DNA of 64,000 nucleotides from SAR202 cluster bacterium (GTDB lineage: Bacteria; Chloroflexota; Dehalococcoidia; Lucifugimonadales; GCA-2712585): positions 820-64,819 of the forward strand of contig VGZZ01000009.1 in NCBI GenBank assembly GCA_016872285.1, read 5' to 3'. Positions 1,841 through 44,371 of this stretch are shown here, in pieces; position 1 is the first letter of the stretch; every line of letters starts with the position of its first letter. Below the pieces are notes generated by a model. The model was not told the origin of the DNA and ran no database searches. It saw only the letters and a program-made list of their open reading frames with translations. Position numbers and translations under genes: made by a program.

Positions 1841-2110
1841 CCTTTGTATAAGCGGGATGCCCTCATCACCCTTAATCCCTCTTCTCCCGACTACGGGAGA
1901 AGAGGGAAAGAATAAAGAAATACCACAACCCCCTCCTTCGACCAGGCTCAGGACGGCGTCTAACTCCCCCTTCGCCTTTCAGGCCGAAGGGGGAGAACCA
2001 GATGGAAGACCCCACGCCCCACCCGTTAAAAAGGCCTGTAGTTTCTCATAAAGCGGCCTTCATGAAAGAAAAAGAGACTCAGAGATCCCTTGATCTATAT
2101 CGCAGTTCAA
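1841..2110 (+). repeat. Mosaic intergenic repeat, copy A (full: left arm, hairpin H1, middle, hairpin H2, right arm R1)
   Basis: H1 is a 12-bp perfect stem: ccctcttctccc (1877-1888) pairs with gggagaagaggg (1895-1906). H2 is an 11-bp stem: ctcccccttcg (1964-1974) pairs with cgaagggggag (1985-1995). The element aligns with copies at 12936, 20171 and elsewhere. Confidence 0.85.
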
Positions 2111-2193
2111 CAGGAGAGAGGGCCAGATAGTATTGGATGCCTTACGGTGCTACTTGATTCCTAATATACGCAGAAAATGTAACCGGCTGTAGT

Positions 2194-2715
2194 TTAGGCT
2201 TTGGGCCTGGTGGAGAGGCCGGCGGCTTTGAACCGTTTGGCGTTTTCCTTGTAATGCTCGGCGGCTGAATTAATTCGGTTTTTGAGCTTGGGTTTTAAGG
2301 GGTGGATTTTCCCGGGGACGCCTACGACGACGGAGTTGGGGGGCACAATGGTGTTAGCCAGGACTACGGCGCCGGCGCCGATGACGCAGTTGTCGCCAAT
2401 CTCTGCGTTTTCCAGCAGGACAGCGTTGACGCCGATCATGACGTTGCTGCCGACTTTGTGGCAGTGGAGGACGGCACCGTGGGTAACAGTCACGTTGTCG
2501 CCGACCTCCAGGTAGTCGTCGGCGTGGAGGACGCAGTTGTCCTGGATGTTGGTGTTGCTGCCGACGGTGATGCGTCCGTAGTCGCCGCGAAGGACCGCGC
2601 CGGGCCAGACGCTAGAGTTTTCGCCGATGGTGACATCGCCGACGATATAAGCGGCCTCGCTGACGAAGGCGGTGGGATGGACGCGAGGGGTCTTTTCATC
2701 CAAGCTTCGGATCAT
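2194..2715 (-). CDS. Gamma-carbonic-anhydrase-like / left-handed beta-helix (hexapeptide repeat) protein
   Basis: MIRSLDEKTPRVHPTAFVSEAAYIVGDVTIGENSSVWPGAVLRGDYG.. shows hexapeptide periodicity. I chose the ATG at 2715 because AAGGAG lies 7 nt upstream; the track start at 2769 is probably too long. Confidence 0.8.
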   Translation of the reverse strand: MIRSLDEKTPRVHPTAFVSEAAYIVGDVTIGENSSVWPGAVLRGDYGRITVGSNTNIQDNCVLHADDYLEVGDNVTVTHGAVLHCHKVGSNVMIGVNAVLLENAEIGDNCVIGAGAVVLANTIVPPNSVVVGVPGKIHPLKPKLKNRINSAAEHYKENAKRFKAAGLSTRPKA

Positions 2716-2832
2716 TAACAGTCTCCTTAGGCTTTGTAGGGATACGTCAGAAAATACTATCACCCCCACGGGTGTGGGGGTGATAGCGATCTGGCTATGT
2801 TAGAGGGCTGAGGCCCTGTTAACTGAGGGGAC

Positions 2833-3261
2833 TTACTTCTTTTCGACGACGAGGACGGGGGTGGAGACGATGGTCTCTTGACCGCCCTGGCCCCGCTTGA
2901 CCTGCATGGTCACGACGCCGCACTTGGTGACGGGGACGGTGACGTCGTCAACGAAGCCGCCGGTGTCGTCAGGGAAGCCGGCGCCGACGAAGATCTGGCC
3001 GGTGGTGGTGCGGACGGAGATGAGGACTACGTCGCCTTTCTCGAAGCCGCCGGCGATAACGTCGAAGGTGACGTTGCCGGTGCAGCCGGGCCTTTCGACA
3101 CGGGCGGGGTCAACCACGGCGGAGGGGACACGGCCCAGGCCTGTCGCAGCGCTGCCACTGCCGGAGCCGGCGCCGCGCACAACGGAAATACCGAGGACAA
3201 GGACTAAAATGCTGACTAGAAGTACGATTATGGTAGCTTTGGAACCCAGGAAGCGATTCAT
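2833..3261 (-). CDS. Hypothetical secreted or membrane-anchored protein
   Basis: 142-aa ORF with an AAGGAGG RBS and an N-terminal hydrophobic signal/anchor (IIVLLVSILVLVLGISVV). I recognise no family. Confidence 0.6.
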   Translation of the reverse strand: MNRFLGSKATIIVLLVSILVLVLGISVVRGAGSGSGSAATGLGRVPSAVVDPARVERPGCTGNVTFDVIAGGFEKGDVVLISVRTTTGQIFVGAGFPDDTGGFVDDVTVPVTKCGVVTMQVKRGQGGQETIVSTPVLVVEKK

Positions 3262-3523
3262 CTAACCTCCTTACGGATGCTTCGTTGTCGAAATTTCTAC
3301 GCTGAAGGGCCTCTGCTGGATGTCTTGCCTTTAGATTAGTTATTGAGGATTAATACTATAGGCTTTGTTGAGGACATCGCTTACGTTTTCTAGCTTTGGC
3401 GCCCCTTCGAGAGCCGCCGAATCGTAGCATAGGCAAAATTCCATTGTCAAGCGAAATTAAGTGTGAATTAAGATAGATTTTGGGGGTTTTATCAATAGCC
3501 GGTTTTATTTGAAAATCCGGCCA

Positions 3524-3685
3524 CTTTCTTAAGTCGGGGCGAACTCAACCCCCTTTGTCCCCCTTCTCTTTTCGAAGAAGGGGGAAAGAAAAAAGAAATA
3601 CCACAACCCCCTCCTTCGGCCAGGCTCAGGACGGCGTCGAGCTCTCCCTTCGCCTTCCAGGCCGAAGGGGGAGAACCTGAATGGG
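3524..3685 (+). repeat. Mosaic intergenic repeat, copy B
   Basis: The H1 variant stem is cccccttct (3559-3567) paired with agaaggggg (3576-3584). It is followed by ccacaaccccctccttcggccaggctcaggacggcg and an H2 hairpin. Confidence 0.8.
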
Positions 3686-3754
3686 ACATCACACTACCCA
3701 GGGCCCAACCTTGTCCCTTCGGCATATTTAGGGCGGCTCCTCAAAGGAGAGGGC

Positions 3755-4759
3755 CTAGCTGCTACTCTCAGCGGGGAGGGGAGCTTCTTCCACGCCGAAG
3801 CCTGAACGCCACAGGTCGTCCAGACGCGCCAGCTCGTGGGGGGTGAGGTTGGGGACGTCGGGGGCGGAGGTGTATTCGGCCAGCTCGCGAGGGTTGGTTA
3901 TGTTGGGGAGGACGGAGCAGATGGTCTCCTGGGCCAGGCAGAACTTAATGGCGGCCTGGGCGAAGGTGCGGTCAGCTTCGTCGGCGATGAAGCGCGATAG
4001 ATTTGCTTTCTTGATAGCTTTTTCCAGCCACTCACGCTTGCGGAAGGCGCGGTGGTCGGAGGGGTCAAACTGGGGCATGGTCTTGTATCGGTCGGTGAGG
4101 ACTTCGGACGCGTGAGGTACCCTGGACAGCAGGCCGACGTTTTTTTCTTTGGCGATGGGGAAAAAGCGGCGTGAGGGTTCCTGCTCAAGGATGCTGTGGA
4201 TTATCTGCATGGCATGAATGTTGCGATACTTTAGAGAGGCTTCGCCCTCCTCGAACCAACCGATGTCTGGGCCTAAGGCGACTGCGTAATACCGTAACTT
4301 GCCTTCCTTTACAAGCTCGTCCAGGGTTGCGAATAGCTCGTCATTTTCGATGGCAGGAAGTCGAGGGTTATGGAGCTGATAGATATCAATATAGTCGGTC
4401 TTGAGGCGGCGGAGGCTCTGCTCGCAGGCGAACCGTATGAAAGCGGGGTCCCATTTCTGGGACCGCTCTTTATGTCCTACACGAGGGGTTGTGTCATGGA
4501 TATCGTAGCCAAACTTGGTGCCGATGATGATGTCGCGGCGCTGTTTGGGGAAGGCCATGGCGAGGACTTCCTCGCCGTAGCCGGTGCCGTAGGTGTCGGC
4601 GGTATCAAAGAAGTTGACGCCGAGGTCGTGGGCCTTTTGCAGGAGATGGATGCCGTCCTCTCGGTCTATGTGGCCCCACCAGTCAGTAGCCACGGTCCAA
4701 ACACCAAAGCCTACCTCCGACAGCTTCAGGTCAGTACGGGGGAGGAGGCGATAATTCAT
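3755..4759 (-). CDS. Aldo/keto reductase
   Basis: 334-aa ORF with FFDTADTYGTGYGE and an AKR-typical layout. Confidence 0.85.
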   Translation of the reverse strand: MNYRLLPRTDLKLSEVGFGVWTVATDWWGHIDREDGIHLLQKAHDLGVNFFDTADTYGTGYGEEVLAMAFPKQRRDIIIGTKFGYDIHDTTPRVGHKERSQKWDPAFIRFACEQSLRRLKTDYIDIYQLHNPRLPAIENDELFATLDELVKEGKLRYYAVALGPDIGWFEEGEASLKYRNIHAMQIIHSILEQEPSRRFFPIAKEKNVGLLSRVPHASEVLTDRYKTMPQFDPSDHRAFRKREWLEKAIKKANLSRFIADEADRTFAQAAIKFCLAQETICSVLPNITNPRELAEYTSAPDVPNLTPHELARLDDLWRSGFGVEEAPLPAESSS

Positions 4760-4783
4760 GTAGAAGGGACTCCGGAAGTAGGT

Positions 4784-5374
4784 TTAGGCTTTGACGGACG
4801 AGAGGCTAAGGACATCCTTGACCTTTAATACTCCATTGTGGAACTGGGCGTCGGTTAACACCGGCGAGGGATCTCCCATGGACACCTGGGAGTCGAGGGC
4901 TACCCAGGACTTGCAGCCATCGTAGTGGGGCTTGAAGTCGACCGATTGAGGAATACCAAGACTATAGACACGGAGCAGCATTAATATTAAAGGTTTGCGG
5001 GGCTTCCAGTGGAGGCGTTTTTCAGCGTAGTCCTGAGTCCAGATATGGAAAGGCTGGAGAAGGGGAAGTGTGGCCTCGTCCCACAGTTCCAGGGTCTCTT
5101 CAACTCGAGCCCAGTGAGTAAAGGCGATTTTAGAAGGATTGGGGAGATGCTCAAGGGCAGGCTTGTATTCGAGACGATAGGACTCCTGGAGGAGGTCGGC
5201 GCGCTGATGCTCGTAGGTAGGATAGAGAAGAAACTCGTGGTGCTGGACCTTGAACTCCCTGCCCTCCTCTCTGATACCGCCCTTGCGCATGAGCAGGACC
5301 TGTTTGCCCTGGGCGAGGGCCCGGACGGTGACGGCCCATTCTTTGAAGGCGATACTGGTAGAGTAAGGGAGCAT
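4784..5374 (-). CDS. DUF1802-like protein
   Basis: 196 aa. The N-terminus AFKEWAVTVRALAQGKQVLLMRKGGIREE..EFLLYPTYEHQ matches my memory of the DUF1802 family. Confidence 0.5.
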   Translation of the reverse strand: MLPYSTSIAFKEWAVTVRALAQGKQVLLMRKGGIREEGREFKVQHHEFLLYPTYEHQRADLLQESYRLEYKPALEHLPNPSKIAFTHWARVEETLELWDEATLPLLQPFHIWTQDYAEKRLHWKPRKPLILMLLRVYSLGIPQSVDFKPHYDGCKSWVALDSQVSMGDPSPVLTDAQFHNGVLKVKDVLSLSSVKA

Positions 5375-5410
5375 CAGCCGACTCCTTAGATATAGCGAGG
5401 CTACCTCATC

Positions 5411-6661
5411 TTAGCATCCCCGGCAGGCCGCCTCAATGCTGACGAATTCATTCTTGAATTCCTGGTAGCTGGAAAATTTGGCTAGATCCCGGACGAACTG
5501 CCCTGGGGAAGAAACGGCGGCGCGGAAAGCCTCCAGCTCTTCATCTACGGTGCTGACGGAGGCGGCGCTTTGGGCGTAGGCGCCGTGGAAGGCGAAATAG
5601 GCCTGATTGAGCTTGCGGATGTAGTAACCGTTGTCGAGGAACAGCAAGCGGCGCTCCTCCATGATCCTTTCCGCAGTCTCAATCTCTCCCAGCGCCAGCA
5701 GTTCCTCTACTTCCAGTCTGGTGGTCTGCATTTCGCCTCGGAAATCAAAGATTTCAAGGATTTTCACCACTTCTTGAAGCTGGCCGTCTGAAAGAATGAC
5801 CGGCTTTGTCAGCGTCTTGCCGGTAATGATTTCATAGACCTTATCCCCAATTTCGCGGCCCGCGAGGTTGGCGGCGGACTCGTTGAGGGATGTGGTGTCA
5901 GAGTCGCGCCCGTAGTTCATACCCAGGGGCCGGAAGAACCAGTATTGGTGAAGCCACTCGTGGACGGCAGTGGACAGGGCGTGGCGGAGGCCGCCGTTGG
6001 GCGGGACTATGCTGGGGTAGGTGGCAATACCGCCGATGTCGACCACCAGAGCGGACAGACCTCTAGACTTAAGGATTTCGTGTTCCAGGGCTTCCCTTTG
6101 ATCGAGGCTGACATCCGGCCTGAGGGTGACGTTGCCCTGACGCTTGATGGCGTCCCGCGGGGAGGTGACCAGGACGGTGGGCGGCAGGACCAACTCCATG
6201 TCCACCGGCGGCCAGAGAAGGCCGAAGGGCCCGCCGAAGCCTTCCTGGACCAGGACCTTGCTCACCAGGGATTCGATGCGCTCTTCGACTCGGGCCTTGT
6301 CTCGGTCTTGAAGGGACTGCAACTCTTTTATAAGCTGCCTTGCGCCCGACTCCTCTCTATCCGAGGCTGTTTGAGAGTAAAGCACCTCTTCCAACTGGTT
6401 TATTTCGTCAGCCCGCTCGAAATACTGACGCACCCGGGCGATTTCCTCTTCTTCGCTCATGTTTTCGCTCCAGGGCATGGCACGGCCCAGGAGGTGAAGC
6501 CACTTCCCCATGAAATTTTTCATCTCCCAGCTTACGATTCCCCATTTGTAAGGAGTCGACGGGGAAGCGGACGACAGGGAGCCGCTGGAATCCTGGCCCA
6601 CGGAAAGCATCAGCATGGCGATGAAGAATATGGCGATGTATCGGTTCAAGAAAAGTCTCAC
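5411..6661 (-). CDS. Membrane-anchored hypothetical protein with an HExxH motif (putative Zn metalloprotease)
   Basis: 416 aa with an N-terminal TM segment (IAIFFIAMLMLSV), a charged coiled-coil-like segment and an AVHEWLHQY (HExxH) motif. Confidence 0.55.
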   Translation of the reverse strand: MRLFLNRYIAIFFIAMLMLSVGQDSSGSLSSASPSTPYKWGIVSWEMKNFMGKWLHLLGRAMPWSENMSEEEEIARVRQYFERADEINQLEEVLYSQTASDREESGARQLIKELQSLQDRDKARVEERIESLVSKVLVQEGFGGPFGLLWPPVDMELVLPPTVLVTSPRDAIKRQGNVTLRPDVSLDQREALEHEILKSRGLSALVVDIGGIATYPSIVPPNGGLRHALSTAVHEWLHQYWFFRPLGMNYGRDSDTTSLNESAANLAGREIGDKVYEIITGKTLTKPVILSDGQLQEVVKILEIFDFRGEMQTTRLEVEELLALGEIETAERIMEERRLLFLDNGYYIRKLNQAYFAFHGAYAQSAASVSTVDEELEAFRAAVSSPGQFVRDLAKFSSYQEFKNEFVSIEAACRGC

Positions 6662-6745
6662 GCTTAAAGAGCCTACAAATATTTTCCCACAAAATCTATG
6701 CAGATAATACGATTGTTCCTTATAAACGGCCTTCTAATCGCGTCG

Positions 6746-6774
6746 TTGCCACGCTGAAGGGTTTTGGCTACAAT
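6746..6774 (+). promoter_or_regulatory. Sigma70-like promoter upstream of the EF-G paralogue
   Basis: TTGCCA (6746-6751), a 17-nt spacer, then TACAAT (6769-6774), about 40 nt upstream of the ATG at 6816. Confidence 0.45.
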
Positions 6775-6815
6775 GACCTGGATAAGCTCCTGCCAGATTT
6801 GAGGTAACTTTTATC

Positions 6816-8867
6816 ATGCCTTCACCAGAAGCGAGCAAAATTCGAAACGTAGTACTTCTTTCACACAGCGGTTCCGGCAAAAGCGCCCTTTCAGAAGCGC
6901 TGCTTTTTGCCACCAAGGCCATAAATCGAATGGGAACCGCCGAGGCAGGTAATACAGTGTCCGACTATGAGCCTGAAGAGGCCAAGCGCCGCTCAAGCAC
7001 TCAAACATCTCTGGTGCCTTGCCAGTACAGCGGATTCAAGATTAATTTCCTGGATACGCCGGGATATGACGATTTCCGCGGCGAGGTTGTGCCGGCGCTG
7101 CGGGTGTGCGAGGGCGCGGTTATAGTCATAAGCGCTATATCTGGCGTGGAGGTAGGGACTGAGAATTCTTGGAACATGTGCAAGGAGAGGAATTTACCTC
7201 GAATTATTTTCGTCAACAAGATGGACCGCGAGAACGCCGATTTCCAGCGGACTCTCAACGGCATACAGGCCGCCTTCGGCAGAAGCTGCGTTCCGTTCCA
7301 ACTGCCTATAGGCAGCGCCCAGGACTTTAAGGGGATTGTGAACCTCCTGGGGAAGGGGGAGAACGCCACGGCTTCGATGAAGGATGAGGCGTCGAAGGCC
7401 AAAGAAAGGCTTATTGAGGCGGTGGCAGAGAGCGACGATGAACTGGCCAACAAGTACCTGGAAGGACAGGAGATAAAGCCGGAGGAGTTGGAAAAGGCGC
7501 TGAAGAAAGCGATTCAGAGCGGTGATCTGGTGCCGGTGCTGGCCGGGTCGGCAACCCAGGCCGCAGGAGTTGAGGAGCTGCTGCAACTGGTAACCGGCTA
7601 CATGCCTTCGCCGATGGAGGTTGGGAAGACGGAGGCGAAGAATCAATCGAACGGAGAAAAGGTAGAACTGTCGCCGAGCAAGGACGGGACCCTGGCGTCC
7701 CTGGTGTTCAAGACCACGGCGGACCCCTTCGTCGGCAAGCTATCCTTCTTCCGCGTGTATTCCGGTGTCTTCAAGGCGAACGGCGAGGTATGGAACGCCA
7801 ACAAAGGCCAGTCTGAGCGCATAGGGCAGGTGTATTTCATGCGCGGCAAGACGCAGGAGCCGACGCCGGAGGTGGGGCCCGGGGACATTGGCGCGGTGTC
7901 CAAGCTGGCGGTGACCACCACCAGCGACACGCTTTGCCAGAAGGACAAACCCCTGGTCTTTGATCCCGTCGTTTTCCCTGTGGGTTTCTATTCGATGGCG
8001 GTAAGCCCCAAGACCAAGGCCGACCTGGACAAGATGTCGCAGGCCTTGGCTCGCATTGTGGAGGAGGACCCAAGCCTGAAGCTGTCCCGCGAGGCGTCCA
8101 CCAGCGAGACCCTGCTGTCTGGGTTGGGGGACGTGCATCTAGAGACGACGGTGGAGAAGGTCAAGCGCAAGTTTGGCACAGAACTGACGCTGAACCTGCC
8201 GAGGGTGCCATATCGGGAGACCATTACGTCGGTGACGCGGTCAGAATACAAGCACAAGAAGCAGTCCGGCGGCCACGGGCAGTATGGACACGTGCTGCTG
8301 AGGCTAGAGCCTCGCGAGCGGGACTCGGGCTTCGAGTTTGCCCATGAGGTGGTGGGTGGTTCCGTACCCAGGGAGTTCTGGCCTGCGGTGGAGAAGGGCG
8401 TCACGAAGTCTCTGGGGGAGGGGGCGCTGGCGGGTTATCCGGTGGTGGATGTGAAGGTGGTGCTGTACGACGGCAGCTACCATGACGTCGACTCCTCTGG
8501 CATGTCTTTCGAAATCGCCGCGGTGCAGGCGTTCAAGAAGGGGATGCTCGATGGGAGGCCCACGCTGCTCGAGCCTATTATGAAGCTCACGGTGAAGGTC
8601 CCCGACGCCAACACCGGCGATGTCATTGGCGATATGAACGGCAAGCGGGGCCGCATTATGGGTATGATTCCAGAGAATGGCTTCACGACGATTGAGGCCG
8701 AGGTACCTCTTGCGGAGCTGCTACGGTACTCGAGCGACCTGAGGTCTTTAACTCAGGGCCGGGCGAGCTACTCCATGGAGCCTAGCCGCTATGAGCCGGT
8801 GCCGCCTGCTATTGGACAGAAGGTGGTAGAAGAGGCGAAGCGAGTGAAGGAAGGGGCTAAGGCGTAG
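6816..8867 (+). CDS. fusA: Elongation factor G paralogue (translational GTPase)
   Basis: 683 aa. The G1 motif is SHSGSGKS, G3 is DTPGYDDF and G4 is NKMD. The EF-G domain II-V layout is present (..GGHGQYGHV..). Confidence 0.8.
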   Translation: MPSPEASKIRNVVLLSHSGSGKSALSEALLFATKAINRMGTAEAGNTVSDYEPEEAKRRSSTQTSLVPCQYSGFKINFLDTPGYDDFRGEVVPALRVCEGAVIVISAISGVEVGTENSWNMCKERNLPRIIFVNKMDRENADFQRTLNGIQAAFGRSCVPFQLPIGSAQDFKGIVNLLGKGENATASMKDEASKAKERLIEAVAESDDELANKYLEGQEIKPEELEKALKKAIQSGDLVPVLAGSATQAAGVEELLQLVTGYMPSPMEVGKTEAKNQSNGEKVELSPSKDGTLASLVFKTTADPFVGKLSFFRVYSGVFKANGEVWNANKGQSERIGQVYFMRGKTQEPTPEVGPGDIGAVSKLAVTTTSDTLCQKDKPLVFDPVVFPVGFYSMAVSPKTKADLDKMSQALARIVEEDPSLKLSREASTSETLLSGLGDVHLETTVEKVKRKFGTELTLNLPRVPYRETITSVTRSEYKHKKQSGGHGQYGHVLLRLEPRERDSGFEFAHEVVGGSVPREFWPAVEKGVTKSLGEGALAGYPVVDVKVVLYDGSYHDVDSSGMSFEIAAVQAFKKGMLDGRPTLLEPIMKLTVKVPDANTGDVIGDMNGKRGRIMGMIPENGFTTIEAEVPLAELLRYSSDLRSLTQGRASYSMEPSRYEPVPPAIGQKVVEEAKRVKEGAKA

Positions 8868-8967
8868 CTGGTACCTGGAGCGCTGATGCTTGAGTAAGGT
8901 TGGTGAATAGCGGCTCACTGCCCACGCATCCCTGACTCCCGTCTCAAACTCTTCCACTCGAGACGTT

Positions 8968-9110
8968 TGATGCGCAATACAGGCCTGGTCATAATCGGGT
9001 CGCCCTCATCACCCTTAATCCCTCTTCTCCAGACTACAGGGGAAGAGGGGGCACCTGAGGGGACACCACCAACTCCACCCATCAAAAGGGCGTGTGGTTC
9101 TTCTATTGGG
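8968..9110 (+). repeat. Mosaic intergenic repeat, copy C (deletion derivative: left arm + H1 fused directly to right arm R1)
   Basis: tgatgcgcaatacaggcctggtcataatcgg + ccctcatcacccttaatccctcttctcc..ggggaagaggg, followed directly by ..ccacccatcaaaagggcgtgtggttcttc. The middle module and H2 are missing. Confidence 0.75.
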
Positions 9111-9216
9111 TAAGGCTTAATGTACATTAGTCGTTCGAGGGGGGAGGAGTCAAGGGGAATCCTCACTACCTACCTTGGTTGTAACGCTAGCCCAGCTAAA
9201 AGAATCGTTATGGGGT

Positions 9217-9977: not shown

Positions 9978-9983
9978 GCGCAG

Positions 9984-10577: not shown

Positions 10578-10667
10578 TGGGACCTCCTATGCTGATGAGT
10601 GGAAGATACATGGGATAAACGCAGCGTGATGGGTGGAGGTGATAAAGGATCGTGCCTCTAGGGTTTA

Positions 10668-10725
10668 CCCCTCACCTTAATCCTCTCCCACAAGGGGAGA
10701 GGAAAGAAGAAGTAAAGCCCTCTGT
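10668..10725 (+). repeat. Mosaic intergenic repeat, copy D (H1-only short form) between comD and comE
   Basis: cccctcaccttaatcctctccc-acaag-gggagaggaaagaag; the stem spans 10682-10689 and 10695-10702. Confidence 0.7.
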
Positions 10726-12810: not shown

Positions 12811-12935
12811 GGCTTTGGAAGTGGCCTCCTTAGGCAGATTTTATCATGGGTTCTATATATGCAGCGGCAGTGACTAAGGAACCGACCACACCACCCTCCA
12901 CCACGACCCATCTCTAGCTCTACCCACAAGACGTA

Positions 12936-13216
12936 GGATTCTGATTACATTCCTGATCATAAGCGGTACTACTTCATCACCCTTAATCGCTCTTCTCCTT
13001 TCTGAGAAGAGGGAAAGAAAAAGAGACACCACAACCCCCTCCTTCGACCAGGCTCAGGACAGCGTCTAACTCCCCCTTCGCCTTTCAGGCCGAAGGAGGA
13101 GTACCAGTCCAGCCCCGAATTCCCATCTGATCAGATGGTTTGCAGCTTCTCATAAACCAGCCCATCATAGAAGAAAACGAAGGCTTGGAACCTCCGTTAA
13201 TGCGTATCACACGTTC
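12936..13216 (+). repeat. Mosaic intergenic repeat, copy E (full)
   Basis: gattctgattacattcctgatcataagcgg + H1 (ctcttctc/gagaagag) + ccacaaccccctccttcgaccaggctcaggacagcg + H2 + the R1 arm ..gcagcttctcataaaccagc..acgttc. Confidence 0.85.
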
Positions 13217-13249
13217 ACGGGGGAGATGACCAGGGGGGCGAGAGCCTCA

Positions 13250-14831: not shown

Positions 14832-14835
14832 TAAA

Positions 14836-20170: not shown

Positions 20171-20520
20171 CTTTGGGGTTGAGGGGCTTTGCACGGAAAG
20201 TGTATGTTGATCTCCTTCGGGGCCACCATTCCCTTTGTCCCCTTCCTCTTGACGCGTGATGCAAATTACATTCCTGGTCATAAGTGGGGCACCCTCATCA
20301 CCCTTTGTCCCTCTTCTCCCGACTACGGGAGAAGAGGGAAATAAAAATAAATTACCACAACCTCCTCTAACTCCCCCTTCGGCCTGAAAGGCGAAGGGGG
20401 AGAACCAGAGCAGCCCCCCCCCCATTGCCGCCTGCTAAATGGCTCGCAGCTTCCCATAAACAAGCATATTATGGGAGAAAAATAAGCCCGGAACTTCCTT
20501 TAATGTCCATCATACGTTCT
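20171..20520 (+). repeat. Mosaic intergenic repeat, copy F (a truncated left unit followed by a full unit)
   Basis: ctttggggttgaggggctttgcacgg..ccaccattccctttgtccccttcctcttg is followed by gtgatgcaaattacattcctggtcataagtgg, then an H1 identical to copy A, then H2 at 20371-20402 with its core inverted, then the R1 arm. Confidence 0.85.
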
Positions 20521-20965
20521 TCGCGAAGGGGAAAGAAAAAGGCCACTATACCCCCCTCCTTCGGTCAGGCTCCCCGACAAGTCGAGGGCAGGCAGGACGC
20601 TCCGATGGATCGGGCCGATCCTCCTACGGCGGACTGCCCCCTCTTTGAATAAATATCAAGGATGCGGAGACTCCGCGCTAAATGCTCAGTTAAGGTGGCA
20701 GAGCGTCTAACTGCCTCTTCATCCCTCAGGGGATACTCGGGACAGGTGCGATTCCATCGGACTCCGCTCCGATTATCATCGGGGTCTTGCGATTGAACAA
20801 AGATTAATGTGCTCGACACTGTATGTCAGTTTGGGGCGGAGCATTTCCAGGCCGAAGGGGGAGAACCAGATGGGAGCAGGCCCAAAGGTCCCCGCCGAAA
20901 TGTTACGCCTCGTATCTATTTCCGGACCAGGGGTACACTGAGTTTTCGTGCAAAGCTGGGGGTGA
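20521..20965 (+). repeat. Mosaic intergenic repeat, copy G (interrupted by ~260 bp of unrelated sequence; carries right arm R2)
   Basis: gaaggggaaagaaaaaggccactatacccccctccttcggtcaggctc.. then an insert (about 20575-20845) then ..tttccaggccgaagggggagaacc, plus a 93-nt R2 (20866-20958) that is 82/93 identical to 44277-44369. Confidence 0.75.
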
Positions 20966-21031
20966 GGGAGGCTAAGGCCTCAGCGCGGGCATGCTGTGAT
21001 ATACTGCTGTCATTTGGCGCCGAATTCAGTC

Positions 21032-27704: not shown

Positions 27705-27825
27705 CTCATTCGGGTCCACCATCCCCTTTATCCCCTTCCTCTTCGGGAAGGGGAAGGAAAAATAAGGAACCACAACCCCCTTTAACTCCCCCTTCGCCTT
27801 CCAGGCCGAAGGGGGAGAACCAGAA
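27705..27825 (+). repeat. Mosaic intergenic repeat, copy H
   Basis: ctcattcgggtccaccatcccctttatccccttcc-tcttcg-ggaaggggaagg..ccacaaccccc..ctcccccttcgccttccaggccgaagggggagaacc. Confidence 0.8.
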
Positions 27826-31940: not shown

Positions 31941-32017
31941 TGGTGGGCGATAGAGGACTCGAACCTCTGACCTTCGCGATGTCAACGCGATGCTCTAACC
32001 ATCTGAGCTAACCGCCC
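31941..32017 (-). tRNA. tRNA-Val (anticodon GAC), CCA encoded
   Basis: The minus strand reads GGGCGGTTAGCTCAGATGGTTAGAGCATCGCGTTGACATCGCGAAGGTCAGAGGTTCGAGTCCTCTATCGCCCACCA. The cloverleaf folds by hand and the anticodon loop is TTGACAT. Confidence 0.95.
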
Positions 32018-36299: not shown

Positions 36300-36323
36300 T
36301 GTTTTTCTCAGTCCTTGTATAAG

Positions 36324-39300: not shown

Positions 39301-40100
39301 GCGTCGAAGGGTTTCTCGGGGCGGAGCCAGGCCCAGATTTTGCGCAGGTCATCGTCCTTAAAGAAGGCATCCTTCTCTTCAGGGTAAACGTCTCGCTCAA
39401 GAGTTGAACTGATGTAGCTATTGTTATCGTCATCGTCCACATCCTCGAAAAGCCGCTTCAACTCCTGGTCGTCGGCGATGCCGAGGGCGCGGAAGAAGAT
39501 GCTGACCGAGACTTTGCGCTTTCGGTCGACTTTAACGGAGAGGACGTTCTTGTTGCTGGTCTCGAACTCCAGCCATGCGCCGCGGTAGGGGATAAGCTTA
39601 GCGGAGCAGAGGCTGCGGTTGGTGGCGATGTCGCGCTCCAAAACGAAATAAACGCCAGGGGAGCGGACCAGCTGGCTTACCACCACTCGCTCGGCGCCGT
39701 TGACAATAAAGGTGCCGTCGCCGGTCATCATGGGGATGTCGCCCATGAAGATTTCCTGCTCCTTGATAACGCCCGACTCCTTGGCGACGAGGCGGGCCTC
39801 CACCCACAGAGAGGCGGAGTAGGTTATCTCATTCTGCTTGCACTCTTCCGTGGAATACTTAGGCTCCCGGAAAGTATGCTTGCCGAAGAATATCTCAAAC
39901 TTATTGGCTGTGAAGTCCTGAATCGGCGAGACTTCCTGGAAGACTTCGCTCAGGCCTTCTTCCTTGAGCCAGCTAAAAGAGTCTACCTGCATTTGAATGA
40001 GATGCGGGATGTCCAAGACTCTGGGGATGCGGGCGAAGGACTTGACTGGTCTGCTGCCGTTACCGTTGGAGGTAGATAAGGACAAAGCCATACTCCTCAT
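36324..40100 (-). CDS. rpoB: DNA-directed RNA polymerase subunit beta
   Basis: 1258 aa with [13 protein letters not shown] and [13 protein letters not shown]. The start could be 40100 or 40091. Confidence 0.98.
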
Positions 40101-40205
40101 ACTCCTAGAGGGGAAAGGATTCGGATCTCGAAAGGCGTGGGCCTAGTGCGGCTAGAAAAGAGCTAACGTGGGCAATTCTTGAAGGCGATAGAATCCGTAA
40201 CCTAT

Positions 40206-40233
40206 ATCGTAGCACTCTTCAGCATGTTGTCAA
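40206..40233 (-). promoter_or_regulatory. Sigma70-like promoter for rpoBC
   Basis: The minus strand reads TTGACA (40233-40228), a 16-nt spacer, then TACGAT (40211-40206), with an A/T-rich stretch upstream. Confidence 0.4.
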
Positions 40234-40429
40234 TAGCTTTTTAAACGAGTTTTTCCCTGTATTACTGTATTACTACAGCTTAAGCATGAGGGCGGCTTTG
40301 CCGCCAAGCGTCTACGAGTCGCAGGATACGGTAGCGTCGATGGCAGAACCGGCTATAGCCTGGCTGGTTGAGGCACACCGCCTTTGCGCAGCGTCAAACC
40401 CGGCTACTGGGCTATAAATAATTCCACTG

Positions 40430-40487
40430 TTGACTTAAAGCTTACTCTGGCGCTATGATACTTAAAACCCCTACCCAGGGGGTATGG
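40430..40487 (+). promoter_or_regulatory. csoR-copA promoter with a putative CsoR operator
   Basis: TTGACT (40430-40435), an 18-nt spacer, then TATGAT (40454-40459). The GC-rich pseudo-palindrome ccctaccc-a-gggggtatggg at about 40467-40487 is of the TACCC-N-GGGGGTA type. Confidence 0.5.
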
Positions 40488-40502
40488 GTTAAGGAGGCCA
40501 GT

Positions 40503-40769
40503 GTGAAGTCCGACGTGAAAAGGGAAGCGGGGAAGCGTCTCTCGTACATAGAAGGGCACATAGCCGGTGTGCGCAAGATGATTGACGAGGACCGCTATTG
40601 TGTAGATGTCCTTAAGCAGACCCACGCTATCAGGAAAGCTATTGAGAAGCTGGAGGCATTGCTGCTGGACGGACATCTGCAATCCTGCGTGGTGGAGGGC
40701 ATAAAGGGTGGGCGCGAGGAGCAGATTGTAAGCGAGTTGCGAGACCTCTATGACGTGAGGTCACGCTAG
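40503..40769 (+). CDS. csoR: CsoR/RcnR-family metal-sensing repressor
   Basis: [41 protein letters not shown] chose the GTG at 40503 (AAGGAGG 5 nt upstream) because the track ATG at 40455 lies inside the -10 box. Confidence 0.85.
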
Positions 40770-40798
40770 TCAGTTATACTTTATCGGCGGTATCAGAT

Positions 40799-43363
40799 AT
40801 GGCTCGACCTACTACAAGCACAAAACAATCTAATACAGGGCGATCTAGTAACGAGAAGAGGTTGACTATCCCTATAACCGGGATGACCTGCGCCTCCTGC
40901 GTCGCCACCATCGAGAAGGCGCTGGAGGGGGTCCCGGGCGTGGCTTCAGCGTCGGTGAACCTGTCGACCGAGAAGGCGACAATTACGTTGGAAGGCGAGT
41001 TGACAGAAAACCCGGCATCGCTGGAAGCGCTAACTAAGGCCGTCAGCGAGGCTGGATACGGCGTGGGCGGGCGAAGGACAACGCTGAGCATTGGCGGCAT
41101 GACCTGCGCTTCCTGCGTAGCGACGGTGGAGAAGGCTCTAAGAAGCGTCCCCGGTGTTCTTTCGGCGTCGGTTAACCTGGCGACTGAGAAGGCGACGGTG
41201 GAAATGGCGCCGGGCGCCGCGGGCGTTGAAGATCTCATACGCTCCGTCCAGGAGTCCGGGTATTCAGCCACGCCGGAATCGGCCTCGGAGGAAGAGGGCC
41301 TGGCAGAGGAGTCGCAGCGGTTAAGTAAGGTCAGGGAGGCCGCGGGGTTATGGCGCAAGTTCCTTGCAGCTGGCTTAGGCGGCGCGCTGCTCTTTATAGG
41401 CAGCTTTGATCCTTTCCCGTGGGTCCCGCCGCTGATGGCGAACTCCGCCTACCTACTGCTCCTTTGGGCTGTGGCAACACCTATTCAATTCTGGAGCGGT
41501 TCCAGCTTCTATCGATACGGCTTTGGGGCGCTCCAGCATGGTTCCGCCAACATGAACACGCTTATAGCCCTGGGGACTACGGCGGCCTATGTCTACAGCG
41601 CAGTAATGGTGGTGCTGGAGATCGCCGGGTCCGACGCGCTGCTCACCCGAGGGTTGGAGAGGGCAGTCTACTTCGACACCTCGGCTATCATCATCGCGCT
41701 GGTGCTACTGGGCCGATATATGGAGCTGCGGGCCCGAGGGAGGACGTCGGAGGCGATCCGGCGGCTTATCGGGCTGCGTCCCGAGTCGGCTCGAGTCGTG
41801 CGGGATGGAGAGGAGAGGGAGGTGGCTATAAGCCAGGTGGCGGTGGGAGACGTGGTGGTGGTGCGGCCTGGAGAGCGCATACCCGTCGACGGCGTGGTGC
41901 TGGATGGTTACACATCGGTGGACGAATCCATGATTTCGGGTGAAAGCCTTCCGGTGGAGAAAACGGTGGGGTCCAGTGTCATCGGCGCGACGATCAACAA
42001 GACGGGGTTCGTCAAGTTTCGCGCCACGCGAGTCGGCAAAGACACCACGCTTTCCCAGATTGTGCGGCTGGTGCAGGAGGCCCAGGGCTCCAAGCTGCCA
42101 ATTCAGCGCCTGGCGGACCTGGTATCCGCCTACTTTGTTCCTATAGTTATCGCCGTTGCCCTGGGCGCGTTTGTGTTCTGGCTATTCTTCGGCCCGTCGC
42201 CGGCCCTGACTTACGCGCTGCTCACATCGGTGGCGATACTGATTATAGCGTGCCCGTGCGCTATGGGCCTGGCGACGCCTACGGCGATAATGGTCTCCAC
42301 CGGCAGGGGAGCGGAAGCGGGCATCTTGATTCGAAACGGGGAGGCGCTGGAGAAGGCCAGCAAGATCACCACCGTGGTCCTAGACAAAACCGGGACGCTG
42401 ACTGTAGGCAGGCCGTCGGTTACCGACGTTATTCCGCTTCAAGGGAAAGATGACGAGCTATTGAGGCTGGCGGCGTCGGTGGAGAAGGGGTCGGAGCATC
42501 CTCTAGGAGAGGCCATTGTTCGAGAGGCGGAGGTCCGCGGCGTAGGGCTGCTTGAAGCCAAAGGCTTTCAGGCCGTGCCCGGCCAGGGTGTGCAGGCACA
42601 AATCAATGGGGCAAAAGTCCTTTTAGGCAATCGCGCTTTCATGGAGGCCCAAGGCCACGTGCTGGATGGACTCGTGAAGAAAGCCGAGGAACTGTCGACG
42701 CAAGGCAAGACAGCCATGTTCGTATCGAGCGGCGATGGAATGGCGGGGATTATCGGTGTGGCCGACACTATCAAGCCAGGCGCAGCCGAGGCTATCGCCC
42801 GACTAAAGGGGCTGGGCCTGGAAGTCATCATGCTGACCGGCGACAACAGGGTTACCGCCGAGGCCATCGCCCAGCAGCTGGGAGTGGACGAGGTTGTGGC
42901 GGAGGTGCTGCCTGGGGACAAGGCCGCCAAGGTGAAAGAGCTGCAGGAGCAGGGTAAGGCGGTGGCCATGGCCGGCGACGGCATAAATGACGCTCCGGCG
43001 CTGGCGCAAGCCGACGTATCGATAGCCATGGGGACGGGGACGGACGTGGCGATGGAGTCCTCGGACGTGGTGCTGATGCGCGGCGACCTTGCGTCGCTGG
43101 TAGGAGTGTTTGGATTAAGTCGAAGAACACTGCGCGTTATTAGGCAAAATCTCTTTTGGGCGATGTTTTACAATGTTGCCCTGATACCCGTAGCGGCCGG
43201 CGTTCTCTATCCTGTCTTTAAGGATGGGGTGCCGGGCGGTCTGGAGTTCTTCTTTGGCGACGTCGGTTTTCTGAATCCTGTGCTGGCGGCCCTGGCGATG
43301 GCGTTTAGCTCGGTGAGCGTGGTAAGCAACTCGCTAAGATTACGGAGGTTAAAGCTAACTTAA
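40799..43363 (+). CDS. copA: Copper-translocating P1B-type ATPase
   Basis: 854 aa with two [11 protein letters not shown] domains, CPC, DKTGTLT and GDGINDAP. Confidence 0.95.
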
Positions 43364-43364
43364 G

Positions 43365-43562
43365 ATGGCAGGCATATTTGAAAGGATTTTTCGGTCCGGG
43401 AAAGATAAAAAGATAGCGATAGACCCGGTGTGCAAGATGGAGGTGGACATATCCAACACTCCAGGAGGCAAGTCGGAGCATGGGGGGAAGGCCTACTATT
43501 TCTGCGCGCCAGGGTGCAAACGGGCCTTCGATAAGGAGCCCCAGAAGTATGCCGCGTCCTAG
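43365..43562 (+). CDS. YHS/TRASH-domain metal-binding protein
   Basis: 65 aa: DPVCKMEVD..YYFCAPGCKRAFDKEPQKY. Confidence 0.8.
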   Translation: MAGIFERIFRSGKDKKIAIDPVCKMEVDISNTPGGKSEHGGKAYYFCAPGCKRAFDKEPQKYAAS

Positions 43563-43621
43563 CCGCATAGGTTTAAAAAGAGGGCCGGATAGGCTATAAT
43601 CGTTTGCGAAAAGCGTAAGAG

Positions 43622-43861
43622 GTGCCGAGCTTGTCGGATACAAGTGCTCCGGAAATCATAGTCTATACCCATCCAGACTGCGGGTTCTCCGCGGCGGTGA
43701 AATTCGACTATGACAACAGGGGCGTTAAGTACCGCGAGATAGACATTTCGTTGCAGCCCGAAGCGATACCGGAGTTGGAGCGACTGGCCGGCGGCGAAAG
43801 AATTACGCCGGTGATTGTGGAAGGGGACAAGGTCACGGTGGGCTTCAACGGCATTGGTTGA
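43622..43861 (+). CDS. Glutaredoxin-like protein with a CxxS motif
   Basis: IIVYTHPDCGFSAAVK..ITPVIVEGDKVTVGFNG shows a thioredoxin fold pattern. GTG start. Confidence 0.65.
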   Translation: MPSLSDTSAPEIIVYTHPDCGFSAAVKFDYDNRGVKYREIDISLQPEAIPELERLAGGERITPVIVEGDKVTVGFNGIG

Positions 43862-43872
43862 AGCTTCTGAAG

Positions 43873-43891
43873 GCCGGGCCGTCGGCCCGGC
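43873..43891 (+). terminator. GC hairpin after the copper operon (no U-tract)
   Basis: gccgggcc-gtc-ggcccggc. Confidence 0.3.
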
Positions 43892-43918
43892 GCGAGCCTA
43901 GCTCCACCCTTGCCCGTA

Positions 43919-43947
43919 TTGACACTTAACAGCGCTAACCCTAGTAT
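43919..43947 (+). promoter_or_regulatory. Sigma70-like promoter for tRNA-Asp
   Basis: TTGACA (43919-43924), a 17-nt spacer, then TAGTAT (43942-43947), 16 nt before the tRNA 5' end. Confidence 0.55.
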
Positions 43948-43963
43948 CATTTTGTACGCTAAC

Positions 43964-44040
43964 GGCCCGGTGGTGTAGCGGCCAAACATACTGCCCTGTC
44001 AAGGCAGAGATCGGGGGTTCGAATCCCCTCCGGGTCGCCA
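43964..44040 (+). tRNA. tRNA-Asp (anticodon GUC), CCA encoded
   Basis: GGCCCGGTGGTGTAGCGGCCAAACATACTGCCCTGTCAAGGCAGAGATCGGGGGTTCGAATCCCCTCCGGGTCGCCA. The anticodon loop is CTGTCAA. Confidence 0.95.
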
Positions 44041-44054
44041 TGGTTTTATTAAGC

Positions 44055-44371
44055 TTTGGATAGAGGGGCTTTGCGCGGGCAGGTGGGGTGTTGGTCTCAT
44101 TCGGGTCCACCAGCTCCTTTATCTCGCCACGGCGAGCTTGCAGCCCCTTCCTTTTCGGGAAGGGGAAGAGAAAAGCCACCACAACCCCCTGCTTCGACCA
44201 TACTTAGGACGGTCCGATTGCATCGGACTGCGCCATATACGCTTAAAGATAGCGGATCTTTCAGGCCGAGGGAGGACCAGATGGGAGCCTGCCCAAAGGC
44301 CCCCACCGAGATGTTACGCTTCATATCCGCTTCCGGACCAGGGGTACACCGAGTTTTCGTGCAAAGCTGAG
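44055..44371 (+). repeat. Mosaic intergenic repeat, copy I (long left arm, H1 variant, middle, degenerate H2, right arm R2)
   Basis: ctttggatagaggggctttgcgcgg..ctcattcgggtccacca..ccccttcc-ttttcg-ggaagggg..ccaccacaaccccctgcttcgacc.. plus R2 at 44277-44369. Confidence 0.8.

Follow-up and report, generated by a model that had tools for sequence, protein, structure and literature searches.

The intergenic repeats of a lake Dehalococcoidia bacterium were strand-locked: all modules of a mosaic hairpin family, and with them the whole repeatome, kept essentially to a single strand with respect to local GC skew, regardless of the direction of the neighbouring genes. The family was described from a 64,000-nt stretch of one contig (the window) and followed through the 2.6-Mb draft assembly, which was 95.6% complete. 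The strand-locking is a new result; a sequence-only reading of the window had described the mosaic and is supported as a whole. We consider the probable explanation, at about 55%, to be that non-autonomous mobile DNA built on an older hairpin unit spread in a burst specific to this lineage, with insertion on one strand.

Hairpin unit and extent of the family

The base unit was about 55 nt long and ran from a C-rich leader through a CT-rich/GA-rich hairpin into a short tail. The two hairpins of the family, H1 and H2, were two direct-orientation copies of one older base unit, preceded by the leaders CCTCATCACCCTTAATCC and CCTCATCACCCTCTAACT, respectively, and their stems were identical in some subfamilies. 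The unit also had solo relatives, families F2 and F5, scattered genome-wide; the sister family F2 had 59 strict matches and about 60–90 copies. Pairing in the hairpins is kept across subfamilies. Among 147 H2-type units, five stem positions alternated between two Watson–Crick pairs with mispairs almost absent, such as C-G in 83 and T-A in 61 units at position 6, and T-A in 75 and G-C in 63 units at position 11. Five of 61 H2 copies had the hairpin tip in inverted orientation at its original site, which would be expected of a hairpin that folds out in vivo. Core-only copies began about 20–40 nt upstream of H1 and ended about 10–20 nt past H2.

All nine copies that had been reported in the window were found at or very near their coordinates, all on the + strand, and all of the reported modules held. 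The sequence-only reading hinged on further copies existing elsewhere, and the family proved to be genome-wide: a BLAST search of the entire assembly with the nine copies as queries gave 1355 alignments, which merged into 312 loci covering 32.7 kb on 58 contigs. Including linked families, the repeat network comprised 679 intergenic segments (F2 occurred in 93) and 93 kb, or 3.6% of the genome. The commonest 12-mers in the genome derived almost wholly from the repeat modules of the window, and 17% of the non-coding DNA occurred at at least five copies. Median identity among copies was only about 82%, and a large part of the family may therefore be old and no longer active. The statement that the repeats fill most non-coding DNA between 1.8 and 44.4 kb was too strong: by a crude gene model, they made up about 2.0 kb of about 5.5 kb (about 37%) in gaps of at least 40 nt between 1.8 and 44.5 kb, and 8 of these 19 gaps held copies. 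The peptides attributed to spurious reading frames were indeed read from the repeats, FQAEGGEP from ttccaggccgaagggggagaacca and PLIPLLPTTGEEGK from cccttaatccctcttctcccgactacgggagaagagggaaa.

The family, which had been left without a name, had no match in Rfam and was not a fragment of a gene. The full family was absent among the 40 relatives searched, and the 20-mer spanning H2 and its tail occurred in no other GTDB species representative; judged by these searches, the full family is apparently found only in this genome. The unit of leader and H1 was spread at low copy number over many families of the class. No orthologous empty site was found in the collections searched, which held no close relative (best flanking-gene match 61%), and an exact-protein look-up for one was negative.

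Miniature-transposon frames and copies in the window

The hairpin units were enclosed by two miniature-transposon frames, MITE-A and MITE-B, and the arms previously described as exchangeable are the terminal inverted repeats of these frames, which have target-site duplications. The elements were 120–770 bp long, non-coding and intergenic, with no transposase inside. MITE-A had a 14-nt terminal inverted repeat and target duplications of 8–11 bp, and its right arm was the module R2 of the sequence-only reading; seven paired copies had flanking duplications, e.g., GTTAAGTT, GGGTAAACCC and GGACTGTAG. MITE-B had an inverted repeat of about 20 nt and 5-bp duplications, and its ends were the former left arm and R1. 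Among the 14 copies with both inverted repeats, the duplication was perfect in five and near-perfect in two, and half of the intact copies had no matching duplication. The duplicated pentamer changed on the two sides together (TCAAG/TCAAG, TGCTG/TGCTG and TCGAG/TCGAG), which fits a true duplication and not a fixed element end. The flanks of MITE-B were the two halves of one F5/H2-type or H1-type hairpin, and unsplit hairpins of these types were present in about 20–47 copies elsewhere in the genome. MITE-B thus lay within the loops of sister hairpins, at the words TCAAG, TGCTG and TCTTG, and insertion of elements inside the hairpin loops of other copies accounts for the nested, arm-swapped, and fused or interrupted copies, the latter already noted in the window together with truncated ones.

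Copy 1 (1810..2130) was a decayed MITE-B-type element with a degenerate R1 arm. Its core (1861–2001) contained the leader CCTCATCACCCTTAATCC, H1, an A-rich spacer, module M (ACCACAACCCCCT), X1 (an optional insert of the family), H2 and the tail AACCAG, and the entire copy was enclosed by the halves of a split outer hairpin, CTCTATCTCC at 1810–1819 and TCAAC-AGGAGAGAGGG-CCAGATAG at 2107–2130. As a single strand, it folded at -35.2 kcal/mol (z = -6.4). Copy 2 (3524..3685) was core only, with a leader variant, H1, M, X1, H2, the tail AACCTG and no recognisable terminal inverted repeats, and was 92% identical to copy 1 across 105 nt. Copy 3 (8958..9139) was real and its end lay at 9134, not at 9110 as had been given; it was an intact short MITE-B at 8963–9134 with the left inverted repeat ACGTTTGATGCGCAATACAGG, one leader and hairpin unit with tail, a short R1 arm and the right inverted repeat TTAATGTACATTAGTCGT, flanked by a perfect (5/5) duplication of TCGAG at 8958–8962 and 9135–9139. 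The repeat placed at 10668–10725 (copy 4) was present at 10628..10712 and belonged to the sister family, being a solo F2 unit, ...GGGTTTACCCCTCACCTTAATCC-TCTCCC-ACAAG-GGGAGA-GGAAAGAAG. Copy 5 (12885..13236) was a full MITE-B at 12931–13214, with both inverted repeats, leader, H1, M, X1, H2 and a long R1 arm, inserted in a split F5-type unit whose left half was ...CCACCACGACCCATCTCTAGCT-CTACCCA-CAAG and whose right half was TCACG-GGGGAGA-TGACCAGGGG.

Copies 6 and 7 had been taken for two adjacent copies. They were one structure (20175..20968), a single 771-bp MITE-A at 20186–20956 with the terminal inverted repeats GCTTTGCACGGAAA and TTTTCGTGCAAAGC, the flanking duplication GGGGTTGAGGG/GGGGGTGAGGG, extra internal hairpin inserts (X1 with an insert, X2 and X3) and the 93-nt R2 right arm. 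A MITE-B of 266 bp (20252–20517, span 20247..20522, also + strand) was nested in its first hairpin loop, that of H1, where it split the host hairpin CCCCTTCC-TCTT^CG-..AAGGGG and was flanked by TCTTG at 20247–20251 and TCTTC at 20518–20522 (4/5). An unsplit H1 like this host was found at 27732–27757 in copy 8 (27705..27825). This copy was core only, with a MITE-A-type inner left arm (CTCATTCGGGTCCACC), the leader ATCCCCTTTATCC, H1, M, H2 and the tail AACCAGA at its end, and its outer inverted repeats were missing; it folded at -28.2 kcal/mol, with z = -4.3 and -3.2 on the + and - strands, respectively. Copy 9 (44068..44367) was a 300-bp MITE-A whose insertion site lay 30 nt downstream of a tRNA gene (43964–44037). 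It had the inverted repeats GCTTTGCGCGGGCA/TTTTCGTGCAAAGC, insert i1, H1, M, X1, X2, a decayed H2 and an R2 arm 88% identical to that at 20859–20958, and its flanks GGATAGAG/GAGTAGAG were a decayed duplication.

Strand polarity relative to GC skew

Co-orientation with the local GC skew was about 95–100% in every repeat family. Given as the written strand on the G-rich strand versus the C-rich strand, the ratios were 88:3, 85:4, 78:2, 66:0 and 108:1 for leader_a, leader_b, M, X1 and the H2 tail, respectively, 48:3 for F2 and 24:2 for F5. The inverted repeats of MITE-B gave 18:0 and 21:0 and the inner arms of MITE-A 13:0 and 6:0, while F3 and F4 gave 0:73 and 1:44, respectively. F4 was a classical GTAG-tagged REP family, equally polar. 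Genes were not co-oriented with the skew (539:586). Off-strand matches were mostly chance hits inside genes or copies near skew switch points, and element orientation flipped wherever the skew flipped within contigs. On the G-rich strand the elements themselves were C-rich, with a skew of about -0.2, so the correlation with the skew is not self-made. The genome skew was very strong, about 0.2, and flipped 16 times inside contigs, with dnaA not at a flip; that it reflects replication direction is assumed here. In another genome, G054, seven of the eight informative copies of the homologous unit lay on the C-rich strand, although the skew is weak there.

Explanations and related systems

Under the preferred explanation, a lineage-specific burst with one-strand insertion, insertion or copying would occur at the replication fork, on DNA that is single-stranded on one template strand only. 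On that exposed strand the hairpins would fold out and offer their loops, so that new copies would arise in one orientation only, and the strong skew and the repeat polarity may share one cause, namely that one template strand stays exposed for long. REP hairpins serve as targets for insertion sequences of five families (PMC1525189), and the lagging-strand template is the insertion target of IS200/IS605 elements (PMC6006769, PMC3971601).

The elements resembled MITEs in being short, intergenic and high-copy, with terminal inverted repeats, target duplications, truncated and nested copies and no internal transposase. They differed in that no parent insertion sequence sharing their ends was found here, MITE-A and MITE-B shared one internal two-hairpin cargo, and insertion was into hairpin loops of sister elements and in a single orientation relative to GC skew. 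No transposase with ends matching either frame was found. IS-2, a DDE (rve-type) insertion sequence with at least 6–8 unassembled copies, had 5-bp duplications, seen from matching contig ends, and a complete relative of it had the duplication GGGGT and an rve domain. It had only the terminal CGYRTGA in common with the MITE-B ends, overall similarity not being significant, and is a weak candidate for driving MITE-B.

A HUH-type single-strand enzyme would suit the units without inverted repeats, and the two-hairpin core might be a PATE/REP-like element that such an enzyme (Y1, of IS200/IS605 or RAYT type) mobilises in single-stranded form. H1 and H2 would then be left and right subterminal hairpins, the leaders guides and TCAAG the cleavage or target word, with the inverted repeats secondary. 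The hairpins are homologous, direct and on the same strand, each with a conserved 5' leader, the boundaries of core-only copies fit, TCAAG flanks most intact copies on both sides in a loop that would be single-stranded, and an equally polar GTAG-tagged family coexists. Strict orientation relative to replication-linked asymmetry, two similar subterminal hairpins on one strand and a short preferred word presented as single-stranded DNA are also found in IS200/IS605 elements and ORF-less PATEs, and near-absolute skew polarity is the signature of IS200/IS605-type transposition (PMC6006769, PMC3971601). However, HUH elements lack the inverted repeats of about 20 nt that intact copies carry, and the flanking pentamer covaries. 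Moreover, neither the RAYT or IS200/IS605-type gene that the sequence-only reading had suggested seeking nor any other Y1 (PF01797), TnpB, reverse transcriptase or serine recombinase gene was found in the assembly, which misses insertion-sequence bodies, and we regard this explanation as doubtful.

Shared with REP/BIME/REPIN systems and their RAYT (TnpA-REP) transposases are the intergenic position of the hairpin units, the conserved sequence on their 5' side, clustering into mosaics joined by linker modules, copy numbers in the hundreds, compensatory changes in the stems and scarcity in divergent promoter regions. In contrast, the F1 hairpins lacked the GT[AG]G tag, no RAYT gene was found, and the units were longer, carried inside inverted-repeat frames and never in inverted pairs, unlike the alternating REPINs and BIMEs. 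BOX of Streptococcus pneumoniae and the SNRs of Deinococcus are also mosaic intergenic repeats with exchangeable boxes and a variable number of internal modules but are unrelated in sequence; to our knowledge, neither has been reported as strand-locked or as nesting in hairpin loops. REP-targeting insertion sequences (IS1397/ISKpn1 of IS3; IS621 and ISPpu9/10 of IS110; PMC1525189) similarly split an extragenic repeated hairpin whose halves can be rejoined in silico, whereas the invader here was a non-coding miniature bearing the kind of hairpin that it targets (self-nesting). In this genome, the F3 palindrome was the target of an IS110-type element that splits it in the manner of those insertion sequences. 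F3 also had NTS-type ends (GTCATTC...GAATC), and a small GIY-YIG gene (contig C12:31434-31722) had X1-like modules on both flanks, recalling the NTS/SRM hairpins of Ssn GIY-YIG single-strand nucleases (PMC11893778); H1 and H2 did not fit the SRM pattern, and the link is through a neighbouring family and the shared X1, not the core.

Polarity could instead come from selection, with insertion either way round and wrong-way copies purged, possibly because a G-run-rich or hairpin-prone strand on the exposed template stalls replication, or with the host using the units, in the way of KOPS, Chi and BIMEs, to mark chromosome polarity or to bind proteins. Five unrelated families are all polar; the MITEs with inverted repeats and duplications are polar to 100%, which is hard to obtain through a DDE mechanism; the elements put their C-rich strand on the G-rich genomic strand, opposing the mutational trend; conservation of the leader and hairpin unit over many families of the class hints at retention; and copies are depleted between divergent genes (12% versus about 20% expected). 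Yet 99% purging over about 700 loci needs strong selection per copy, no wrong-way relics were seen, and confinement to one genome is typical of selfish bursts. We know of no binding protein or function for the units, and selection is an unlikely source of the polarity. That the elements act as RNA (mRNA 3'-end stabilisers, terminators or small RNAs), with covariation reflecting RNA structure, would agree with the compensatory stem changes, the strong folds, the bias to gene 3' ends (168 versus 86 on the H2 side) and the AT-richer relatives, in which the homologous unit lies directly downstream of stop codons, with a T-run and a second hairpin behind it. This is very improbable: orientation tracks the skew (108:1) and not the adjacent gene (56 sense and 104 antisense copies in tandem gene pairs), both strands fold about equally well, Rfam gave no match, and in this genome neither hairpin has a T-run behind it on either strand and a terminator scan does not detect them.

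For DDE-type elements, which have inverted repeats and duplicate their target, insertion is normally into double-stranded DNA and either way round; the mechanism that the MITEs seem to use does not predict their 100% polarity. An ordinary cut-and-paste transposon would not be expected to keep to one strand relative to a base-composition skew, as essentially all elements of this genome do.

Abundance and architecture of the repeat family

All nine repeat copies that the sequence-only reading had listed in the window were found, each of them on the + strand. Three segments of 105 nt (1898-2002, 3576-3680 and 13004-13108) aligned in register in the repeat finder with mutual identities of 85-100%, and the 93-nt right arm at 20859-20958 was 88% identical to that at 44270-44369. 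The outcome that would have refuted the family, a genome search without additional copies, was clearly not obtained: copies were found throughout the source assembly, a draft metagenome-assembled genome of 2.61 Mb in 83 contigs that is 95.6% complete. BLAST of the nine copies gave 312 merged loci covering 32.7 kb on 58 contigs, and the central modules gave 90-170 matches each across the whole assembly. The most frequent 12-mers genome-wide were also fragments of the repeat modules. Non-coding DNA, as delimited by a crude home-made gene model, was compared all-against-all; 17% of it occurred in at least five copies, and almost all of this belonged to a single network of 679 linked segments that totals 93 kb (3.6% of the genome). 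The family is real, very abundant and lineage-specific. The earlier statement that the repeats fill most of the non-coding DNA was too strong, as they make up about 37% of the gap DNA from 1.8 to 44.5 kb and occur in 8 of the 19 gaps. The repeats do produce spurious ORFs, as had been proposed, and both quoted peptides can be read straight from the repeat sequence. They also fragment assemblies, and they explain a large part of the long intergenic stretches of this Dehalococcoidia genome, which is compact in other respects.

The grammar of the family was derived from about 270 copies aligned on the tail of hairpin H2, together with an alignment on the leaders. The base unit consists of a C-rich leader (variants CCTCATCACCCTTAATCC and ATACCATCCCCTTTATCC), a hairpin with a CT-rich 5' arm and a GA-rich 3' arm, and a tail. 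The two hairpins H1 and H2 are homologous, being two base units in direct orientation with an A-rich spacer between them; H2 is preceded by ..CCCCCTCTAACT, and the stem CCCTCTTCTCC/GGAGAAGAGGG is common to both hairpins in some subfamilies. Small extra hairpins, named i1, i2, X1, X2 and X3, are optional and inserted at fixed places, and what had been described as the middle module is internal module M plus X1. Two sister families occur as solo hairpins: F2, ..GGGTTTCACCCTCACCTTAATCC-TCTCCC-ATCAAG-GGAGAG-GAAAG, to which the fourth window copy belongs, and F5, CCCCGACCCCCCTCTCTAACT-CTCCCCC-TCAAG-GGGGGAG-AGGACCAGA.

Single-strand folding was strong, with z-scores of -4.3 to -6.4 for the written strand and -3.2 for the complement. 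Five stem positions switch between two Watson-Crick pairs among 147 H2-type units, and the near-absence of mispairs at these positions shows that pairing has been maintained. Only a few independent changes, however, are enough to account for the subfamilies. Among 61 H2 copies, 5 had the tip of the hairpin inverted in place, the outcome that would be expected of a folded-out hairpin.

Two miniature transposon frames and the insertion sequences of the genome

The H1/H2 units are carried by two miniature transposon frames, MITE-A and MITE-B. MITE-A has a 14-nt terminal inverted repeat formed by right arm R2 and a left extension (GGGGCTTTGCACGGAAAGTG..), and 7 paired copies carry GCTTTGCACGRAAA at each end. 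At least 5 of these 7 are flanked by duplications of 8-11 bp, such as GGGTAAACCC and GGACTGTAG. Window examples lie at 20186-20956 and 44068-44367. The sixth and seventh copies, which had been listed separately at 20171-20520 and 20521-20965, are a single MITE-A whose H1 loop contains a MITE-B. The copy at 44068-44367 is located 30 nt downstream of a tRNA gene (43964-44037, +); the second tRNA gene of the window is at 31944-32017 (-), and a T-box leader (138 bits) is found at 59756-59969 (-), upstream of the leu operon region. The duplications of several further MITE-A copies are GGGTAAACC-like, which places these copies inside the GGGTGAAACCC word of F2 units and suggests a target preference for another sister repeat.

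MITE-B ends in the terminal inverted repeat ACGCGTGATGCAC..GTGCATCACGCGT, which closes the left arm and right arm R1, and both ends were found in about 14 copies. Among these 14, 5-bp duplications were perfect in 5 and near-perfect in 2. The duplicated word co-varies on the two sides (TCAAG/TCAAG, TGCTG/TGCTG and, in the third window copy, TCGAG/TCGAG), which argues for a true target duplication and against a fixed element end. TCAAG was the commonest flanking word. The outer flanks of MITE-B are the two halves of an F5/H2-type unit (..CTCTAACT-CTCCCC-TCAAG on one side and TCAAG-GGGGAG-AGAACCAG on the other) or of H1, and unsplit versions of the same hairpins occur at paralogous sites elsewhere in the genome; MITE-B is therefore located in the loops of sister hairpins. 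Either it hits hairpin loops repeatedly, or a small number of entries into a unit were followed by spread of that unit together with its insert. Many copies, including the second and eighth in the window, are cores that carry no recognisable terminal inverted repeats. Copy-to-copy identity averaged 82% and reached about 96% at best; because copies are only about 82% identical, element ends are fuzzy, and the attempt to define sharp ends from alignment end-points was dropped. With terminal inverted repeats in both frames (and core-only copies beside them) and target duplications of a set length in each, the family behaves like a MITE nested in REP-like targets.

Searches for Y1/RAYT (PF01797), TnpB (PF07282), reverse transcriptase (PF00078) and serine recombinase (PF00239) gave no matches in the 95.6% complete assembly; these negatives are weak because the bodies of multi-copy insertion sequences are missing from it. 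The assembly breaks at two such insertion sequences, and includes only about 130 nt of each of their ends. One is an IS110-family element in at least 9 copies, with about 115-150 nt of each end assembled, whose C-terminal peptide ..ACMRKLLTILNAMLKHKTPW matches NF033542. It always inserts at GTCATTC^TGAGCG in the palindrome of the co-resident family F3, in one orientation relative to the skew, and copies lie at contig ends, for example at both ends of C9 (the contig of the window), C33:1-183 and C29:1-169. The other is IS-2, which encodes an rve-type DDE enzyme and has ends CGCATGAC../CGTGTGAC.. and repeated GGTTACCG motifs. One end is found at C13_R, C19_L, C25_L, C2_L, C38_L, C51_R, C6_R and C33_R (end A) and the other at C12_R, C20_R, C45_R, C66_L, C67_R and C8_R (end B). 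Pairwise matching of contig ends gave 5-bp duplications of TATAC, CTTCC, TGGAC, GGTTG and GGGGA, which allow five contig joins (C12-C25, C20-C38, C45-C2, C66-C51 and C67-C13). In another genome, a complete relative codes for a protein of 423 aa with an rve domain, and its duplication, GGGGT, adjoins a TTGAC word. The insertion sites lie 5 bp away from such a TTGAC word, which resembles a -35 promoter box, both here and in a relative (locus L121). End alignments of IS-2 with MITE-B were no better than shuffles; IS-2 is a weak candidate parent of MITE-B, having in common with it the 5-bp duplication length and terminal CGYRTGA, and no more.

Orientation relative to the local GC skew

GC skew in this genome is very strong (about 0.2, with 2-kb windows reaching 0.35), and it is independent of gene strand. 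The polarity of each module was counted as copies on the G-rich strand to copies on the C-rich strand, as defined by local GC skew. The two leader patterns gave 88:3 and 85:4, and M, X1 and the H2 tail gave 78:2, 66:0 and 108:1, respectively. The solo families F2 and F5 gave 48:3 and 24:2. The ends of MITE-B were found at 18:0 and 21:0, the inner arms of MITE-A at 13:0 and 6:0, and inserts i1, i2 and X2 at 24:0, 52:2 and 16:0, respectively. Two unrelated palindrome families were locked the opposite way, F3 at 0:73 and F4 at 1:44. F3 (GTCATTCYGAGCG...GAAGAATC) comprises 73 strict copies of a polar palindrome, and F4 (GTAGGGGCGAGGTnACCTCGCCC) is a classical GTAG-tagged REP in 45 copies that never occurs in inverted pairs; neither is present in the window. 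Overall, the strand rule holds for about 700 loci in at least five sequence families with about 99% fidelity, 95-100% of units being on one strand. Nearly all of the apparent exceptions were matches that arose by chance within genes, palindromes read a second time, or copies located where the skew switches.

The elements flip together with the skew inside contigs C7, C18, C6, C16 and C33. Gene orientation was unbiased relative to the skew (539 vs 586 confident genes), and the direction of the elements relative to genes was mixed, with 56 sense and 104 antisense in tandem gaps, 64 in convergent gaps and 30 in divergent gaps. A skew correlation made by the elements themselves was ruled out, since their sequence had been masked when the skew was calculated and since, on the G-rich strand, they are themselves C-rich. 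With GC skew as the proxy for replication direction, orientation appears locked to the replication-linked strand. The skew changes sign at 16 points within contigs, for example near 4 kb and 36-40 kb on C7, near 32 kb on C18 and near 60 kb on C6, which reflects either many inversions or mis-joins at repeats. The dnaA gene (C14:36719-38113) was dropped as an anchor for replication direction, as it does not lie at a skew switch.

Origin of the family and of its strand lock

A search of 40 genomes from the same family and order did not recover the full repeat family, and a 20-mer spanning H2 and its tail gave only 3 single chance-level matches among about 185,000 species representatives. Among 400 sampled genomes of the class, 19 from many families matched a unit of about 40 nt, leader plus H1 and nothing more. 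Four of these 19 carried 7-18 copies each, vs 0-1 for a control pattern. There the unit adjoins other small hairpins; in some cases it immediately follows a stop codon and has a T-run after it. The leader+H1 unit is thus old, class-wide and low in copy number, and the two-hairpin MITE mosaic is a burst in the source lineage. An exact-protein look-up for strain-level relatives that might show empty sites was negative, and one metagenome scan for them returned nothing closer than 61% identity. In G054, a relative with a genome of 1.5 Mb and 49% G+C (loci L104-L112), the unit is embedded in a mosaic of small CT/GA hairpins of its own. Seven of 8 informative copies there are on the locally C-rich strand, opposite to the source genome; the skews in G054 are weak. 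Polarity of the homologous unit in G054 and in a second genome, G194 (loci L113-L119), was set aside as a test, the skews being too weak and the copies too few.

We favour a lineage-specific burst of non-autonomous mobile DNA, built on an older hairpin unit and coupled to the replication fork, and consider this explanation slightly more likely than not. Insertion or copying would use the template strand exposed as single-stranded DNA at the fork, where the hairpins would fold out. Use of a single-strand template would allow only one orientation to arise, and the extreme skew and the repeat polarity would then share one cause. This fits the behaviour of IS200/IS605 elements (PMC6006769, PMC3971601) and that of insertion sequences that target REP hairpins (PMC1525189). 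The mechanism is what we infer and is the weak part of the explanation, because elements with inverted repeats and target duplications are not expected to be polar.

A core of PATE or REP-like type driven by an HUH enzyme would share several of these features, and we regard it as possible if doubtful. Like PATEs derived from IS200/IS605, the family has subterminal hairpins on the same strand, with H1 and H2 homologous and in direct orientation, and a polarity linked to replication through the GC skew proxy. Unlike them, its intact copies have inverted repeats and a 5-bp repeat that depends on the target instead of a fixed word. REP/REPIN-RAYT systems differ further: the 5' GT[AG]G tag is absent from H1/H2, whose leaders are CCTCATCACCCT.. 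or ATACCATCCCCT.., with GTAG confined to the separate F4; inverted doublets are absent, the units of the family all being in direct orientation; and the draft assembly (95.6% complete) has no PF01797 match. Published surveys of REP elements report inverted dimers, with no mention of strand polarity (PMC3733652, PMC3116915). Ends of the Ssn-type NTS/SRM hairpin (CGTC/GTCATTC...GAATC type; PMC11893778) were found in F3, and X1-like modules flank a GIY-YIG gene; the H1/H2 core does not fit this pattern. The gene encodes a small nuclease of about 100 aa (C12:31434-31722, -; locus L124:1440-1722) and has X1-like CTTCGACAAGCTCA modules on both sides, one of which overlaps its 3' end; a second copy on C27 has a stop codon inside. 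The arrangement is like that of ssnA genes flanked by their target motifs, and X1 is an optional insert of the studied family too.

The strand rule might instead come from selection on orientation, or from a host function of the repeats as polar signals, which we consider rather unlikely. Function as RNA is the least likely of the rivals and would be surprising in spite of the strong folding, because the elements are oriented without regard to the gene next to them, the hairpins lack a following T-run and Rfam gave no match. Rfam families yielded nothing relevant at gathering or permissive thresholds, with weak chance-level microRNA-type matches to the palindrome. Intrinsic terminators were rejected as well, as the terminator scan included neither H1 nor H2, and A-rich or mixed sequence follows the hairpins. 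A broader and improbable reading is that the lock reflects general fork-coupled repeat propagation under extreme strand asymmetry and not the side effect of a known transposase, or else chromosome-orienting signals recruited by the host. Under general propagation, folded-out hairpins would be landing pads, and perhaps primers for template switching, so that any element could be copied into them one way only, whether hairpin units, elements with inverted repeats and target duplications, or REP-like and Ssn-type palindromes.

Small intergenic repeats are usually seen as orientation-free clutter. The strand rule described here holds even for families that resemble ordinary cut-and-paste miniature transposons, and it does not hold for genes. 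If it reflects single-stranded DNA at the fork, then extreme GC skew would be linked to the spread of mobile DNA, replication-coupled transposition would reach beyond IS200/IS605, and the rule would offer a ready way to read replication direction, and inversions in the past, from draft assemblies of bacteria that have not been cultured.
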